Below, in pieces: positions 11,575 through 26,125 of a stretch of 32,000 bases of DNA. A model generated the notes under the pieces. That model saw nothing but the letters and a program-made list of their open reading frames with translations. It ran no database searches and had not been told where the DNA came from. The DNA comes from Candidatus Hodarchaeota archaeon (GTDB lineage: Archaea; Asgardarchaeota; Heimdallarchaeia; Hodarchaeales; Hodarchaeaceae). The position numbers and the translations under genes were made by a program. Position 1 is the stretch's first letter; each line of letters begins with the position of its first letter. The DNA lies in contig JBHLKC010000011.1 in NCBI GenBank assembly GCA_048887065.1, forward strand, positions 1-32,000, written 5' to 3'.

Positions 11575-12228
11575 TTGATGGAGAAGAATAAAATGTCAGA
11601 TCCTACTGGTAGTAATTATGACGATGATGATGATTCAAGGCGATATCCACGGAGACGGAGAAAACCAGGTGAAAATCCATTTGATGATATTTTTAACCAT
11701 TTCATGAACACTTTTGGTGGGATGGATTTCAATTCCTTGTTTGATCAAATGGACTACTTTTTAGAGGACATCTTCAGACGATTTGGTATGCGAACTCCAA
11801 TGGAAGGGGATTCTAGGTTCCCAGGTTTCGTTTGGGGATTTCGGATGACTCAAGGTCCTGATGGTCGTCCTCGTATTGAGCGATTTGGGAATACTCCTCG
11901 GAAGATGACGAGTAGCTCTGGTGATGCACGCCCCTCTTATGAACGAGAACCATTAGTTGATGTGATCGAAGATACAGATGTTGTCAGAGTAATTGCAGAG
12001 ATTCCAGGTGTTATGAAACAAGAGATCGAATTATCTGCTACAGATAACAGTTTGTTAATTCAAGCTCAATCTGAAGATTCCAAAAGGAAATATTTTAAAG
12101 AATTAGATCTTCCCTGTGTCGTCATACCAGAATCTGCTTCTGCTAAATTTAAAAATGGCGTATTAGAGGTAGAGCTGAAAAAAATCGAATGTGATGAAAA
12201 ACAAAGTACTAAAGTACATGTTGAGTAA
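11575..12228 (+). CDS. hsp20: small heat-shock protein, Hsp20/alpha-crystallin family
   Basis: The C-terminal alpha-crystallin domain is VDVIEDTDVVRVIAEIPGVMKQEIELSATDNSLLIQAQ...ASAKFKNGVLEVELKK. The N-terminus is long, charged and likely disordered. The likeliest start is ATG 11593 (GGAG 9 nt upstream) rather than TTG 11575. Confidence 0.8.
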   Translation: MMEKNKMSDPTGSNYDDDDDSRRYPRRRRKPGENPFDDIFNHFMNTFGGMDFNSLFDQMDYFLEDIFRRFGMRTPMEGDSRFPGFVWGFRMTQGPDGRPRIERFGNTPRKMTSSSGDARPSYEREPLVDVIEDTDVVRVIAEIPGVMKQEIELSATDNSLLIQAQSEDSKRKYFKELDLPCVVIPESASAKFKNGVLEVELKKIECDEKQSTKVHVE

Positions 12229-12258
12229 CAGCCATTTTTCCCTATTATAATTTTTTGC

Positions 12259-14493
12259 GTGAGGATGCTGTTAATGCAACCCATTGAACTTCGTCTGCAA
12301 GTTAAAGAAGCGAATTATCACGATGTAGGTCGGGGTATTGGTAGAATTTCCAAGAAAAATATGAAGAAACTTGGAGTCTTATCTGGAGACGTCCTCGAAA
12401 TTAAGGGTTCAACGGGAAAAAAAACGACAGTAATAGTTTGGGCTACTTATAGCATTGATGAGAATAAAGATATTATCTCAATAGATGCAACCTCAAGAAT
12501 GAATGCAGGTGTCCACTTAGATGAATTGGTTGTTGTGCAAAAAATAGAGGTTTTACCAGCAAAAAAGATTGTACTGGCACCCACAACCGAATATATTTTA
12601 GGAGACGCGAAAAAATTCTTTCATATGGGATTACAAGGAAGAGCTGTATCAATTCATGACACTATTCGCTTAGAATATATGGGACAACGAATTGAATATA
12701 AAGTTGTAAATCTAACTCCCAAGAATGATTCTGTTGTTATTGATGAAAATACTGTCGTTGATGCAATGACAACTGTATCTCCTTCAGATAAAACCTTGGT
12801 TGAAATGAAGCTGATTCCGAGGATTTCGTACGAAGACATTGGGGGAATGGATGAAACTATTCAGAGAGTAAGGGAGATGGTTGAACTCCCTATGCGATAT
12901 CCTGAATTGTTCGAACGTTTAGGGGTAGAACCACCAAAAGGTGTGCTTCTTTATGGTCCACCTGGCACTGGTAAAACATTATTAGCAAAAGCGGTTGCGA
13001 GTGAAACTGATTCACACTTCATTAATGTGTCAGGCCCCGAAATAATGTCCAAATTTTATGGTGAAAGTGAACAAAATATTCGTGAGATATTTGATGAGGC
13101 AAAAGAGAAGGCTCCAAGTATAATCTTTATTGATGAGATCGATAGTATAGCTTCAAAGCGTGATGATGCAAATTCTGGAGAAGTTGAACGAAGAATTGTT
13201 TCACAAATGTTAGCATTAATGGATGGATTGGAGAGTCGTGGCGAAATAATCGTTATTGGAGCGACAAATCGTCCAAATGCTATTGATCCTGCTTTGAGAA
13301 GACCTGGACGCTTTGATCGAGAGATTGAGATTGAAGTGCCCAACCAAAAAGGCAGATTAGTCATTCTTGAAATTCACACACGATCTATGCCCCTTGCGGA
13401 AGATATTGACTTAAAAAACATTGCCATGCGTACTCATGGATTTGTAGGTGCAGATTTAGCTTCTCTCACAAAGGAAGCCGCCATGAGAGCAATTAGAAGA
13501 GTATTTCCCAAAATTGTTTGGGGTGAAAGTATTCCTTCAGAAATAATTGATCAAATATCGGTATTATCAGCAGATTTCGATGTTGCTATTACAGATGTGC
13601 AGCCCAGCGCACTTAGGGAAGTTATTATTGATGTTCCTACAGTTTCTTGGGATGAGGTGGGTGGATTAGACGAAATCAAACATGAATTAAAAGAAATTAT
13701 AGAATGGCCATCAAAATACCCATCAATTTTTAATTATATGGATGCTGAAATTCCTCGGGGTGTTCTACTAATTGGTCCTCCTGGAACTGGTAAAACATTA
13801 CTAGTTCGTGCCTTGGCAAGTGAAACCTTGTATAATTTCATTTATGTAAAAGGCTCAGAAGTTCATTCAAAATGGGTTGGTGAAAGCGAAAAAGCAATTC
13901 AAGAAACGTTCCGTAAAGCCCGCATGGGTTCTCCCTGCATTGTATTTTTCGATGAAATTGACACTTTGGTTCCCTCACGAAAAGGGTTTATCTCTGATAC
14001 TGGAGCAACAGACCGAATTATTACTACTTTTTTAACTGAAATGGATGGCTTGGAAGAATTGAGTGATGTAATCGTTATTGCAGCGTCGAATCGTCCTGAT
14101 GTTATCGACCCTGCCCTCTTAAGACCTGGCCGATTTGAAAGAATAATAGAATTACCATTACCAGACGAAAAAGCCAGAGAAGAGATATTAAAGGTTCATA
14201 CAAGAGACAAACCATTATCCCATAAAATTTCATTATCCGATGTCGCTAAAAAGACTGATGGATTCAGTGGAGCTGATATTAAAGGCCTAATAAATCGAGC
14301 GACGTTCTATTCAATTAATCGTTTTCTTCAAGAACATCAAGAAAAGCTGAATAATAATGATCCTTCAAAAATTAATGAGCTGATTAAAGATTTGAGACCT
14401 GAAATCAAATTATCTGATATAATAGAATCATTAAATTATTTTCAAACTTCATCAAAAAAAGATCCACATTCAGAAATATCGTACAAGATGTAA
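12259..14493 (+). CDS. cdc48: Cdc48/VAT-type AAA+ ATPase (two AAA domains)
   Basis: The N-domain is [17 protein letters not shown]. It has two Walker A motifs (both [10 protein letters not shown]), Walker B motifs IIFIDEID and IVFFDEID, and GATNRP / AASNRP with PGRFDR / PGRFER. The probable true start is ATG 12274 (MQPIELRL), 9 nt after GAGG. Confidence 0.9.
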
Positions 14494-14522
14494 TATTAAT
14501 GTAATATGTTGGTAGATCAACT

Positions 14523-15320
14523 GTGTATTTTGATAAACTGAGTGAAGAAATTGATGATCTGCTTGAAAAAGCAGAGGATAAAAATAATATAAAATTTATT
14601 GGAGAGGATGATCATTTTCCTCACGAAGGAGAGGTAGTGATCGAGATGCTCGGTTTTTATGGGTCAGTTAATCAAATTATTACAAAAGAAGTTCAGAAAA
14701 TAGCTCAAAAGAAGAAAAAAATAGCTGGGATCTTCTCAAGTTACTTTAGTGAAATGGTTCAAATCATATCTGGAGAGATTTTACTGCCAATTACGATTCA
14801 TCAGGTTCAAATTGGGTCTAAACCTTTTATCTTAACAACAAGTAATTTCTCAGTCCCTGACATAATTGGATACCAATTAGCGGAAGAATTATTCAAGTTT
14901 TATAAAAGACAAAAAGTGTCAAAAATTCTTTTGATAGATGGAGTGTACAATAATGAACGAAATATCAATAAAAAACCACAGATTCACAAAATTTTCTCCT
15001 CAGATTTACAAATAAATGTCATAAATAATGATGTGGCTGATTTCACTTTGATAGGTCAGAGTGCATGTTCTTTTTTGACTTATTGGGGCTATAGGGAGGA
15101 TATCCCGATTGAAATTTTGGTTGTTGACTCTTTTTCAGAATATGATCCTATGTCTTCTCTTGAGCTATTAAAGAATTTAATGCGAGAATGGGGAATTAAA
15201 GGGGATTTAAGTGATTTGGAAAAAAAATCAAAAGAATTTAAACTATCATATACGCAATCAGAAAATGAATCAGAAGTAGAAAGACAGGAAAAGAATTCTG
15301 ATAAACGATTCTTTATCTAG
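14523..15320 (+). CDS. possible PAC2-family (proteasome assembly chaperone-like) protein
   Basis: 265-aa ORF. VVIEMLGFYGSVNQIITKEV and KILLIDGVYN resemble the IEGLPGIGLVG... and IIVTGD... segments of archaeal PAC2/PbaA proteins, from memory. It has an acidic tail ending in the HbYX-like FFI. It lies immediately downstream of cdc48. The similarity is weak. Confidence 0.35.
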   Translation: MYFDKLSEEIDDLLEKAEDKNNIKFIGEDDHFPHEGEVVIEMLGFYGSVNQIITKEVQKIAQKKKKIAGIFSSYFSEMVQIISGEILLPITIHQVQIGSKPFILTTSNFSVPDIIGYQLAEELFKFYKRQKVSKILLIDGVYNNERNINKKPQIHKIFSSDLQINVINNDVADFTLIGQSACSFLTYWGYREDIPIEILVVDSFSEYDPMSSLELLKNLMREWGIKGDLSDLEKKSKEFKLSYTQSENESEVERQEKNSDKRFFI

Positions 15321-15333
15321 GAGGTATTAAATC

Positions 15334-15900
15334 TTGAATGGAGATCCTTTAGATGATATCGAATTAATACTAAAAATCCTTTCATATCAAATTGAGAGTA
15401 AAAATGTTATAGCTCCAGATGAAATTGATCAAATACTACATTTACTAGCAAATCGTACAAGACGACGAATGTTGGCTGAATTGGCTGACGGAGAGGGTTT
15501 TGTTAATGAATTAGTAAAACGATTAGATGATCATCCTCAATCTATCATTCGGCACTTAGAGGTACTGAAAAAGAATAACTTAGTCATTGGTAAAGAACGT
15601 CAAGTAACTGGAAGGAGAGGCCGACCAAGGGTTTACTATGCACTGTTTCCAGAAGTAGCTAATCTGATCAGCAGCACAGGAAGAAATGCTTCAAAACAGG
15701 GAATCACTGATTTTTGTAGTAGTTTCCCTCGTCTAAATGCTATAAAAAAACGCCTTGATAGCCGAATTTCTCATTCAGAGCAAAAGAAAATTATTTCTGA
15801 AGTGAAGAGTATTAAGAATGAACATGAAATCGCCCTTCAAGCCTGTAATGAGATTCTTGAAAAGGCGAAGAAGAAAGTCACGAGAATACCAGTTGAATAA
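15334..15900 (+). CDS. winged-helix (ArsR/Phr-like) transcriptional regulator with C-terminal helical region
   Basis: 188-aa ORF. LANRTRRRMLAELADGEGFVNELVKRLDDHPQSIIRHLEVLKKNNLVIGKE...GRPRVYYAL is an ArsR-type wHTH. It is followed by a long predicted helix. GGAGG at 15320-15324 lies 9 nt before the TTG start. Confidence 0.55.
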   Translation: MNGDPLDDIELILKILSYQIESKNVIAPDEIDQILHLLANRTRRRMLAELADGEGFVNELVKRLDDHPQSIIRHLEVLKKNNLVIGKERQVTGRRGRPRVYYALFPEVANLISSTGRNASKQGITDFCSSFPRLNAIKKRLDSRISHSEQKKIISEVKSIKNEHEIALQACNEILEKAKKKVTRIPVE

Positions 15901-16233
15901 GAAAAGGTTTGGTTAAAGCTGGCTCAGAATCACGAATCGAGTTATCAGAGATCGCTTTTCCTTTTTCAAGATGTAGAACAAGCAAGAATCATAATTCCAA
16001 AGTTTTTAAAGCATTGTTGTGATTTAAACCAGACATATACAACAGGCTTAATTGTAATAAATGAAGATTCTTTTCTACCAAAGATCATTCCAGATTTAAA
16101 CAAGCTTCTATTTCTTCTCCCAAACATTCGCATTGTTAAATTAAATGAGATCACCCAAGAATTAGGTCAGACTGTAGATTTTATATTTATTGATCTACGT
16201 CAGGTTTTTAATCCTAATAAAATTATTATCCTT

Positions 16234-18186
16234 TTGGAGGCAGTTCGAGGAGGGGGGATAATCTTTATCCTCGGGCAAGATAAACCTGACTGGCTTTATT
16301 CTATCAATGAGAACCGTTTTCCCAATATGTTACTAGAATCAAAAAAAAGGAAGTCAATATTATTAAATTGGTTTTTGAATAATATTAATGATAATCCTCA
16401 GTGTATTTCAAATACAAAGTCAATTTCAGATGTAATTTCAAGATTCCATCCAATCCCCTTAGAAAATAGCTTAAAAGCTCAGATAGATAGTATTTTTGTA
16501 AGTGAAGAGCAGAAAGATGTGATTGATAAGCTTCTAGTTGAATTAAGCAATTTGTCATATACAAATAGTTGTTTAATTTTGGTAGCTAATCGTGGTAGAG
16601 GAAAATCTGCAACAGTTGGCTTAATGTTATCCCAGTTTATTATGCGGAATCCATCTCATAAATTTAAAATAATTGTCACTGCCCCCTATTTAACAAATGT
16701 ACAAACAATTTTCGAGTTTATTTCAAAAGGTTTTAATTCTAAGAATATTAAATGTCAGTTCGTTAAGAAGAATGGGTTTATAACCGGGGTTCATACTTCT
16801 ACAAAAGCAATATTAAAATTTATACCTCCAAGTGAATTAAATAAACGCTTAAAGACCGATATTATTGTAGTTGATGAAGCTGCTTCACTTCCTTTAGATT
16901 TATTGAGACAAATTCTTCGAACCAAAACAAAAAAAATTTTCATATCAACAATCCATGGATATGAAGGAGCAGGAAGAGGATTTGAATATAAAATTCTTAA
17001 TTATCTAGAAAATCAGAAGCAAATTCATTACAAAAAATTCACCTTACATCAGCCTATCAGATATTTTCAAGGTGATTTGATCGAAAAACTATTAAACGAC
17101 ATTTTTTTTCTCAATGTTGAACCTGAACCATCAGAACTAAAAATTCAAGAAATTAGACGGGATTTTATTACTCTAGAAGAGTTTAAAGATCCAGGTTTCT
17201 TATTCTCGAGAAGAGGATCACCTTATCTTAAGCAATTGTTTGCGATTCTTGTCTACGCTCATTATCGAAATCAACCCAATGACCTCGTACTATTAGCAGA
17301 CTCAGGAAAACATTTCTTGGTTGGACTATATGAAAAAAAGAATGATAACGGAGGAAAATTACTAGTTTCAAGCCAACTAGCACAGGAAGGGAGAATGTCC
17401 GATCAAGAAATCTTAGACGTTGCTTCTGGTCGTTTTATTGAGGGTAATCTTATCCCTTCAGTAGCTATCCGTCATTTTTCAAAGGATTTTGCTAAGTTAA
17501 ATGGTTTAAGAATTGTTAGGATAGCGTCTCATCCGAGTCTAATTGATAAAGGTCTTGGTAGACAAGCGATAGAATTACAAATCAAAAGATACTCTTCATA
17601 CGATTGGATTGGAGTAAGTTTTGGTACAACAGTTAAACTAATCAAATTTTGGACAAAGTTCGGTTTCAAATCTGTCCATATTCGTCCTATAAAGACCCCT
17701 GAAACTGGTGAATGGAATATAGTAGTAATCTTCCCTTTTTCTCCTTCTGCTACTAGAATCATTAATGAAGCATCTTCTGATTTTTTATTACAATTCATTT
17801 CTTTACTCAAACAATCATTACATTCGATGAAACCAGAGTTAGTTTCACATATCATAAGAAGTTGCGTTCCAATTCCTAATTACGAGGTAAAAATTACTGC
17901 AAGTGGAAAATATCGCCTTAAAAATTATTTAAAAGGGAATCTTAACTTCCTATTAGCTGTTGATGTAATGTATGAGCTTGTAATGAAGTATTTCGTTTCC
18001 CATGCCTTCAATGTAAAACTAAGTCCTTCTCAGGAAGTGTTGATTATTGCTCGTATTTTGCAAGGAAGAACATGGGGACAAACATTAGGTAAAACAGGAT
18101 TAAATTGGAAAACAGCAAATGGCTTGATTAAGAAAGCCATTGAAAAACTGACTATAATGTTTATAGAAAAGGATAACGATTTTTAA
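16234..18186 (+). CDS. tmcA: tRNA/rRNA cytidine N4-acetyltransferase, TmcA/NAT10 family (canonical-start ORF; coding region extends upstream to about 15901)
   Basis: Helicase-like Walker A ANRGRGKSA, Walker B IIVVDEAASLP, HGYEGAGRGF, and GNAT core RIVRIASHPSLIDKGLGRQA. The upstream in-frame sequence (15901-16233) encodes the family's N-terminal domain (...QRSLFLFQD...VDFIFIDLRQVFNPN...VRGGGIIFIL) but contains no ATG, GTG or TTG. Confidence 0.85.
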   Translation: MEAVRGGGIIFILGQDKPDWLYSINENRFPNMLLESKKRKSILLNWFLNNINDNPQCISNTKSISDVISRFHPIPLENSLKAQIDSIFVSEEQKDVIDKLLVELSNLSYTNSCLILVANRGRGKSATVGLMLSQFIMRNPSHKFKIIVTAPYLTNVQTIFEFISKGFNSKNIKCQFVKKNGFITGVHTSTKAILKFIPPSELNKRLKTDIIVVDEAASLPLDLLRQILRTKTKKIFISTIHGYEGAGRGFEYKILNYLENQKQIHYKKFTLHQPIRYFQGDLIEKLLNDIFFLNVEPEPSELKIQEIRRDFITLEEFKDPGFLFSRRGSPYLKQLFAILVYAHYRNQPNDLVLLADSGKHFLVGLYEKKNDNGGKLLVSSQLAQEGRMSDQEILDVASGRFIEGNLIPSVAIRHFSKDFAKLNGLRIVRIASHPSLIDKGLGRQAIELQIKRYSSYDWIGVSFGTTVKLIKFWTKFGFKSVHIRPIKTPETGEWNIVVIFPFSPSATRIINEASSDFLLQFISLLKQSLHSMKPELVSHIIRSCVPIPNYEVKITASGKYRLKNYLKGNLNFLLAVDVMYELVMKYFVSHAFNVKLSPSQEVLIIARILQGRTWGQTLGKTGLNWKTANGLIKKAIEKLTIMFIEKDNDF

Positions 18187-25276: not shown

Positions 25277-26125
25277 ATAAAGATCCTAATTGGGATACCT
25301 CTCTACAACGAACAAGCCTATCTCTCTGAATGTATTAGTTCACTTTATGCTTTTCTTTATCAGGAATGTCAAGAATATGATTTTAAGGTTCTTCTAGTTG
25401 ATGATGCCAGCACGGATTGCTCACAAGAAATTTATGAAACATTAGCAAAACACTATCCCTTCAATTATGTTAGACATGCTGATGGCCCTCAGGGCTATGG
25501 TAATACTATTCTCACATTGTTTCAACAAGCGAAAAGAAACTTTGATCTGTTAATAACTTTTGATGCTGATCTTCAACATGCTCCTCTTACAATAAAAGAA
25601 ATAATCCAAGTTATAGAAAATCATCCAGAGATCGACTTAGTGTCGACAAGTCGTTACCTTTCCTATCGATTTTGGAAACAGAATACTGATGTTCCCGTAG
25701 ATAGATATGTTACTAATATGCTAATAACGAAAACAATAAACCAATGTTTTCATCTAGATATTACAGACGCTTTTTGTGGATTGAAAGGATATAAAACAAG
25801 CAAATTACCTTCCAATCTTGATGATGCAGGTTATGCTTTTCCTTTAGTATATTGGGATTTTGTTTCGCGAAATAAGCTGGTTATTCAAGAAATCGAAACA
25901 CCGATCATATATCGATTAGATCGACGAGCACGTGGGGAATGGAAGAAAAGAATGAAAGAATATTTCATGAAATTAGAATCTATAATCATTTCATCCGAGC
26001 TAAAACAATTAGTTAGACAGAATTACACCCAGGGAATTAAGAGGATGACAGAAATAATCGATCATTTTTCAAAATTCCCAATATTTATTTATCAAGACTT
26101 TCTCAAGACTGATTGGCTAGATTAA
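25277..26125 (+). CDS. family 2 glycosyltransferase (dolichol-phosphate sugar synthase-like), apparent ATA start
   Basis: The ORF-track version (25517, TTG) removes the nucleotide-binding N-terminus. The same frame upstream reads (I)KILIGIPLYNEQAYLSECISSLYAFL...FKVLLVDDASTDCS...GYGNT, the canonical GT2 N-terminus. It is followed by FDADLQH (the DxD region) in the listed ORF. The frame is open only back to 25232. Confidence 0.75.
   Translation: MKILIGIPLYNEQAYLSECISSLYAFLYQECQEYDFKVLLVDDASTDCSQEIYETLAKHYPFNYVRHADGPQGYGNTILTLFQQAKRNFDLLITFDADLQHAPLTIKEIIQVIENHPEIDLVSTSRYLSYRFWKQNTDVPVDRYVTNMLITKTINQCFHLDITDAFCGLKGYKTSKLPSNLDDAGYAFPLVYWDFVSRNKLVIQEIETPIIYRLDRRARGEWKKRMKEYFMKLESIIISSELKQLVRQNYTQGIKRMTEIIDHFSKFPIFIYQDFLKTDWLD

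Follow-up and report, generated by a model that had tools for sequence, protein, structure and literature searches.

Translation of tmcA in a Candidatus Hodarchaeota archaeon most probably starts at the CTG codon at position 15919, judging from comparison of the locus with its relatives. The gene lies in a 32,000-nucleotide (nt) stretch of contig JBHLKC010000011.1, referred to here as the window, whose positions supply all coordinates of this locus, and it follows a gene for an ArsR-type winged-helix (wHTH) protein. The assembly comprises 4.0 Mb in 463 contigs with a completeness of 88% and a G+C content of 34.6%. The tmcA frame is open from 15901 to the TAA at 18184–18186, and its first ATG, GTG or TTG is the TTG at 16234. 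The original prediction for this DNA, made from its letters alone, had described positions 15901–16233 as 111 codons lacking a canonical start and in frame with the wHTH gene across the TAA at 15898–15900, and the coordinates of the open reading frames (ORFs) confirm both points. Canonical start codons make up 3.8% of the in-gene codons in this genome, which gives a run of 111 codons without one a probability of ~0.013. A conserved CTG start in tmcA is a further case of near-cognate start codon usage, a known feature.

A CTG codon at the head of tmcA

Pfam profiles were used to identify the product of the open frame. TmcA_N (PF08351) matches residues 6–168 counted from 15901 with E = 3.6e-12 and 47 bits (cut-off 22.7), and the alignment covers profile positions 5–174 of 178. 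The N-terminal domain therefore begins within a few codons of the wHTH stop, and the assignment to TmcA/DUF1726 in the original prediction is borne out. The 111 start-less codons alone score 24.5 bits for TmcA_N against the curated cut-off of 22.7. The translation from 15901 also contains the RecD-like NAT10_TcmA_helicase domain (PF05127, 5e-51), with a Walker A-type motif (NRGRGKSA), and the GNAT_acetyltr_2 domain (PF13718, 2e-37), so that a profile search of this translation recovers all three of the N-terminal, helicase and GNAT domains. The C-terminal tRNA-binding domain (PF13725) scores 20.4 bits, below its cut-off of 27. The best matches in the PDB are Kre33/NAT10 (1e-53) and Escherichia coli TmcA (2zpa, 2e-31), and the closest named homologs among the matches listed come from metagenome-assembled genomes (MAGs) labeled Candidatus Hodarchaeota or Hodarchaeales, of the Asgard lineage. 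The product is predicted to be a complete TmcA/NAT10-type RNA cytidine acetyltransferase of 755 residues.

The locus was compared across 21 genomes of the genus, three closer relatives (L021–L023) and a near-identical strain (L025), with the window designated L001. A tmcA ortholog is present in 20 of the 21 same-genus genomes. Sixteen species (L001–L013 and L021–L023), with protein identities of 44–88%, were aligned, and in every one of them an in-frame CTG occupies the homologous position, at a constant distance of 8 codons from the tyrosine of a downstream Y-x-R-(S/T/N)-L motif. In the window the CTG is residue 7 counted from the stop, one residue past the beginning of the TmcA_N profile match at residue 6. 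The original prediction gave CTG 15919 and ATA 15991 as the only near-cognate codons of the start-less stretch; this was wrong, as the stretch holds 22 when AAG, ATT, ATC and ATA are counted, and those located 5′ of the conserved YQRSLFLF motif are AAG 15904, AAG 15916 and CTG 15919. In-frame stop codons stand 0–2 codons 5′ of the CTG in six species (L003, L004 and L006–L009), with a TAG immediately adjacent to it in L007, and therefore nothing upstream is translatable in the tmcA frame in those species. The position of the window's TGG (15910) is occupied by TGA, TAG or TAA in most relatives. Ten species (the window, L002–L009 and L011), and also L021, have no canonical start before codon 28–111, and the first canonical codon falls at differing, non-conserved positions across these species.

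The codon itself is more constrained than its amino acid requires. Among 27 invariant leucine columns in the 16 species, the CTG column alone has a single codon, in an alignment that was anchored on the CTG by cutting the coding sequences there, which means that this column was chosen and not found blind. The other 26 columns use 2–6 codons each, and CTG makes up 5.5% of their codons, compared to 5.1% of leucine codons genome-wide. Homology of the CTG column is indicated by its fixed 8-codon distance to the Y-x-R motif. By this measure the CTG is conserved beyond the amino-acid requirement, which is a synonymous constraint. Several public records place the start at the same codon: protein P0001 (MAQNHESS..., 755 residues) from L025 and record P0002 from an 88%-identical relative both start at the CTG, and other NCBI records of relatives begin at the CTG (MSQGYTQSYQR...) or at an ATT.

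The ratio of nonsynonymous to synonymous substitution rates (dN/dS) over the 105 start-less codons that follow the CTG is 0.27 (L021), 0.23 (L022) and 0.26 (L023), and these codons are therefore under purifying selection. This result bears on the possibility that translation begins at TTG 16234 or at some other canonical codon inside the gene, leaving the protein without most of TmcA_N, or that the gene is decaying. TTG 16234 is the first canonical start in frame, and Prodigal-type calls in ENA, JGI and Logan give such shortened proteins in relatives; however, a start at 16234 would split TmcA_N, the first canonical codon is placed differently in every species, and the frame is intact across the selected codons. 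Neither an internal start nor decay is at all likely.

A Shine-Dalgarno (SD)-like AAGGT precedes the CTG. The 16S rRNA 3′ end carrying the anti-SD was not found in the 88%-complete assembly, and the SD consensus, AGGAGGTGA, was therefore derived empirically from the genome. The spacer from AGGT to ATG peaks genome-wide at 6–8 nt with a tail to 10–11 nt. Relatives carry aaGGTnGAT 9 nt before the CTG, and L007 has GGTGA at the modal distance of 6 nt.

Along with the anchoring of the alignment, several observations weigh against CTG 15919 as the start. The SD match of tmcA spans just 4–5 nt, and its 10-nt spacer lies in the tail of the distribution. A TTG stands two codons 5′ of the CTG in L010, L012, L013, L022 and L023, and the window and its 88%-identical relative L021 have TTA where these five species have TTG, so the window could reflect the recent loss of a real start that is merely tolerated. 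L016 has a tmcA without the CTG and without an evident canonical start before its Y-Q-R motif. An initiator tRNA with a CAU anticodon was not found by Aragorn in the incomplete assembly. Elsewhere in the genus, a more distant subclade (L014, L015 and L017–L019) has an ATG ~5 codons upstream and L020 has a TTG; the canonical starts of the tmcA relatives sit 2 (TTG) or 5 (ATG) codons upstream and not at the CTG codon itself.

Two details accompany these observations. The L016 locus (G006:C326, ~1485–1500 of the oriented locus) reads TAA aca gtt tct att caa..., and its start candidates are a GTT 8 nt after GGAGAG or an ATT. Aragorn detected 11 tRNAs in the whole genome without the intron option and 24 with it, none of them CAU; the tRNA genes probably contain non-canonical introns or are missing from the assembly.

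The presence of TTG in L022 and L023 at the window's TTA also raises the question of an assembly or consensus error at 15898–15921, such as a real TTG misread as TTA, and MAG assemblies can carry errors. The locus was examined in L025, an independent assembly (GCA_048886065.1) that is 99.83% identical with 8 single-nucleotide differences in 4.7 kb. Its junction is identical to the window's (TAA...TGG TTA AAG CTG), species L021 likewise shows both the TTA and the CTG, and the lack of a canonical start is shared by 10 other species. An error of this kind is highly improbable.

The junction between the wHTH gene and tmcA

The original prediction laid its emphasis on the wHTH gene being in frame with tmcA across a single TAA. 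This frame relation is not kept in relatives: the wHTH gene is in frame with tmcA in L001 and L021–L023 and is offset by 1 or 2 in 11 others. The in-frame relation is thus accidental on this comparison, because 12 of the 16 related loci are in another frame or unscored. Comparison of the orthologous loci for fusion versus separation shows two separate genes with varying frame offsets. In 23 of the 23 related loci examined, tmcA directly follows the wHTH gene, whose product has a C terminus (...KKKV.KI.VE*) that ends at a constant position in all species. The gap between the wHTH stop and the CTG is 18–20 nt in 14 of the 16 loci and 37 nt in L012 and L013. L009 was considered as a locus with a different upstream context and was rejected, as it contains a 10-N scaffold gap and has the wHTH gene upstream as well. 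Approximately 100 nt 5′ of tmcA in L009 (G015:C178), the junction sequence aaagaaaggttgataaaaactgtctca is duplicated on both sides of the gap, which is an assembly artifact.

Translation through the TAA into a wHTH–TmcA fusion, or a single gene recently split by a nonsense mutation, would account for two ORFs in the same frame with one TAA between them in the window. The offsets in the 11 relatives and the constant end of the wHTH protein argue against either version, and the relatives that share the frame (L021–L023) carry a second in-frame stop, a TGA four codons after the TAA and before the CTG. Neither a protein of the fusion length (~945 residues) nor an HTH domain occurs among the best 120 of 1622 homologs. 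Read-through and a recent split can hardly be correct.

A programmed frameshift into the tmcA frame was also considered, with either the wHTH frame or a short upstream ORF as its origin. An ATG in L002–L005 and a GTG in L006 overlap the wHTH stop (TGA in L002–L005) in frame +1, and this frame is open across the CTG. However, that frame lacks a start in L007–L009 and in the window, the window's frame +1 reading stops at a TAA before the CTG, and the direction of the shift would vary, with −1 needed in L002–L006 and +1 from the window's only nearby TTG. No conserved slippery site was found at the junction in three-frame views of the relatives. Frameshifting is an exceedingly improbable source of TmcA. 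Of the four options that the original prediction offered for the start-less stretch, near-cognate initiation with CTG 15919 as a named candidate is the one backed by the comparison with relatives, and the read-through fusion, the recent nonsense mutation and the assembly error fall away.

CTG and ACG codons behind Shine-Dalgarno sites

Start-less 5′ extensions of ORFs of at least 120 codons were collected throughout the genome and scored for an SD, defined as a run of at least 4 matches with a spacer of 5–10. CTG ranks first among all codons, with 30 raw hits in 147 versus a 7.8% baseline (p = 1e-6), and it also exceeds its own flanking baseline (p = 9e-5). ACG ranks second for an upstream SD (p = 0.008). 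A refined test counted each codon once, and the two remaining frames of these regions served as the control. An SD precedes 26 of the 147 in-frame CTG codons (17.7%) versus 7.4% and 8.5% out of frame (Fisher p = 7e-4), and 13.9% of ACG codons in frame versus 6.3% and 5.3% out of frame (p = 0.01). ATA, ATT and ATC show no SD excess genome-wide in this in-frame versus out-of-frame test, and their candidacy as generally used starts was rejected for that lack of enrichment. These distributions identify CTG and ACG as predicted minor start codons of the genome and genus, used behind ordinary SD sites. In six genes checked against Pfam, an SD-preceded CTG or ACG lies 2–17 residues ahead of the domain, and the first canonical start comes only after the domain has begun (Table 1).

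Table 1. Genes in which a Pfam domain begins shortly after a candidate CTG or ACG start; residues are counted from that codon.
Gene (contig)	Candidate start	Domain	First canonical start
MinD/NUBPL-type ATPase (C136)	ACG	From residue 2; Walker A at 8–15	Residue 19
Arf/Ras-type GTPase (C34)	CTG	Ras profile position 1 at residue 12	Residue 27
PIN_9 protein (C272)	ACG	From residue 17	Residue 24
WD40 protein (C312)	CTG	From residues 4–10	Residue 31
CofC (C144)	CTG	From residue 8	Residue 22
Mrr_cat (C27)	CTG	From residue 3	Residue 17

The MinD-type gene has the ACG in 15 of 15 genus genomes, 7–8 nt behind TAGGAGG, TAGGTGG or TAGGGGG. The gene (C136 4327–3449, minus strand; relatives L027–L040) encodes a P-loop ATPase with Fe-S motifs, and the TAG within its TAGGAGG is the stop codon of an upstream His-rich gene. 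The start codon position of the GTPase is more variable: it is CTG here, TTG in 17 relatives and ATG in 1, and 2 have an ATG one codon upstream. The GTPase gene (C34 17914–17333, minus strand; relatives L043–L062) lies behind the same GAGGAG motif.

Further ACG codons stand right after an in-frame stop with strong SDs (AGGAGGTGA, GGAGGT, AAGGAGG) at C5 14980 (minus strand), C8 14823 (minus strand) and C272 2160 (plus strand); the C8 gene has no Pfam match. In the window itself, a GT2 glycosyltransferase gene (25277–26125, plus strand) has its domain from residue 5 when read from an ATA at 25277, which sits 6 nt after AAAGGAGGA. Its first canonical start is 80 codons downstream, and no co-directional gene lies within 200 nt upstream. 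The ATA start of this gene looks like an isolated case because ATA has no SD enrichment genome-wide. The gene for aIF1 was considered as a candidate for a weak start and rejected, since it starts with an ordinary ATG in this genome.

Proposed initiation at CTG 15919

In the proposed mechanism tmcA is a separate gene, the last of an hsp20–cdc48–PAC2–wHTH–tmcA cluster. Ribosomes would either attach at the weak SD of the 18-nt gap or stay on the mRNA after terminating at the wHTH TAA, and would initiate at CTG 15919, 18 nt after that TAA and 10 nt after AAGGT, leaving the codons between the TAA and the CTG untranslated. The initiator methionyl-tRNA (Met-tRNAi) would read the CTG with a first-position mismatch, which would make the first residue methionine. 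The weak codon, perhaps aided by the termination 18 nt upstream, may keep TmcA output below that of the upstream heat-shock genes.

A variant of CTG initiation is termination-reinitiation, where ribosomes that end wHTH translation at the TAA restart at the CTG, which makes tmcA translation dependent on that of the wHTH gene. The CTG remains the start codon, and what differs is how the ribosome arrives. The constant upstream wHTH gene and the 18–20-nt gap are compatible with coupling and do not prove it, and several of the other CTG- or ACG-start genes lie 12–47 nt after an upstream gene or overlap it. Against this variant, the gap is 37 nt in L012 and L013, and the SD-like motif makes de novo initiation possible. 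The WD40 (C312), Mrr (C27), GT2 (25277) and C5 ACG genes have no co-directional ORF ending within ~190–200 nt upstream, and coupling is therefore not generally needed. A dependence of tmcA on wHTH translation is the less probable of the two routes to this codon.

Comparison with known near-cognate initiation

NCBI translation table 11, which PGAP uses, lists CTG, ATT, ATC and ATA as rare starts; ACG is not known as a start codon in this table. The tmcA codon resembles these rare starts in that an SD-preceded CTG replaces ATG, GTG or TTG, and P0001 and P0002 begin there with methionine. It differs in being conserved genus-wide, across proteins of 44–88% identity and under synonymous constraint, and in that the genomes appear to use ACG as well. 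Eukaryotic near-cognate initiation, which involves Met-tRNAi and eIF1/eIF2, prefers CUG and ACG. The enrichment of CTG and ACG here, and not of ATA, ATT or ATC, resembles this preference, whereas the archaeal codons would be guided by an SD without scanning and would be the sole starts of main ORFs instead of producing isoforms or belonging to upstream ORFs. The AUU of infC is a weak bacterial start codon used for expression control. It parallels tmcA as a conserved weak start in a translation or RNA-modification gene, which suggests a selected low or regulated output; in contrast, no autoregulatory logic is evident for tmcA, where regulation is putative.

The start codons given in reviews of archaeal initiation are AUG, GUG and UUG alone (PMC7531240, PMC4705826). 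In ribosome profiling of Haloferax volcanii, ~30% of the putative alternative initiation sites are near-cognate, and archaeal ribosomes can therefore probably start at such codons (PMC7261190). Those sites differ from the tmcA CTG: they were put aside as potential false positives, and they do not serve as main starts for conserved genes (PMC7261190). The literature searched, the coverage of which was incomplete, yielded no account of conserved CTG or ACG codons as main-ORF starts in Asgard archaea. A genus-wide CTG start in tmcA together with the ACG in 15 of 15 genomes would mean that archaeal genes can keep near-cognate starts as lasting features. The preference for CTG and ACG is similar to that of eukaryotes, and it occurs in a lineage with aIF1 and aIF2, factors common to archaea and eukaryotes (PMC4705826). 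The Hodarchaeales are among the closest archaeal relatives of eukaryotes.

As a speculative extension, for which the odds appear unfavorable, the Hodarchaeales may choose starts by a relaxed, eukaryote-like hierarchy that tolerates CUG and ACG but does not favor AUA, AUU or AUC, and may fix weak starts over the long term on particular genes to set or regulate their expression. In that event the conserved CTG of tmcA, the last gene of a Phr/heat-shock cluster, would limit the capacity for RNA acetylation until start-codon stringency or coupling shifts, as might happen during heat stress.

The choice of start codon also affects annotation. Gene finders limited to ATG, GTG and TTG cut 37–180 residues from TmcA in many public Asgard records, and in ENA, JGI and Logan many calls for relatives are shortened to 546–718 residues versus ~750. 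Canonical-start calls in this genome would also remove the Walker A motif of the MinD-type ATPase and the P-loop of the small GTPase. Shortened gene calls therefore distort the domain inventories in studies of eukaryote origins.

Gene neighborhood of tmcA

The five genes from hsp20 to tmcA are co-directional on the plus strand from 11575 to 18186, with intergenic gaps of 13–30 nt (Table 2), and the same gene order is found in L021–L023 and L025, with the cdc48–PAC2–wHTH–tmcA part kept among relatives. The cluster looks like an operon because of these short gaps.

Table 2. Features of the hsp20–tmcA region.
Feature	Position	Strand	Description
hsp20	11575–12228	+	TTG start; Pfam HSP20
cdc48	12259–14493	+	GTG start; Pfam CDC48_N/AAA
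PAC2-like gene	14523–15320	+	GTG start; Pfam PAC2
ArsR-type wHTH gene, Phr-like, 188 residues	15334–15900	+	TTG start behind GGAGGT; TAA 15898–15900
SD-like AAGGT	15904–15908	+	Core AGGT 15905–15908; 10 nt 5′ of CTG
TGG TTA in tmcA frame, proposed untranslated	15910–15915	+	Three-frame comparison with relatives
Proposed CTG initiation codon of tmcA	15919–15921	+	Position conserved in relatives
tmcA, predicted NAT10-type RNA cytidine acetyltransferase coding sequence, 755 residues	15919–18186	+	Pfam and PDB matches
105 TmcA_N codons lost by a canonical-start gene call	15919–16233	+	dN/dS; public gene calls of relatives truncated to 664–718 residues
TTG, first canonical start in tmcA frame	16234–16236	+	Within TmcA_N domain; position not conserved

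The wHTH protein matches HTH_20 (8.7e-8) and HTH_5 (1.6e-5) in Pfam. Its best PDB match, restricted to residues 29–104, is 2p4w (E = 2.5e-7), the Pyrococcus furiosus heat-shock regulator Phr. The wHTH gene is similar in sequence to Phr, and a regulatory role is putative. TmcA here probably shares the four-part architecture of TmcA/NAT10/Kre33 enzymes, with strong matches to them (E. coli 2zpa, yeast Kre33 and Thermococcus kodakarensis Nat10, PMC12478401), and its gene stands out by closing a heat-shock-type cluster, downstream of a Phr-like regulator gene, and by the proposed CTG start. N4-acetylcytidine (ac4C) is linked to thermotolerance through T. kodakarensis Nat10 (PMC12478401), and the position of tmcA behind a Phr-like regulator in an hsp20–cdc48–PAC2 cluster fits this reported link. 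A connection of tmcA to heat stress is suggested only by the gene neighborhood and the published thermotolerance work. None of the five genes in the cluster has an ATG start: the codons are TTG, GTG, GTG, TTG and CTG, the last as proposed here.

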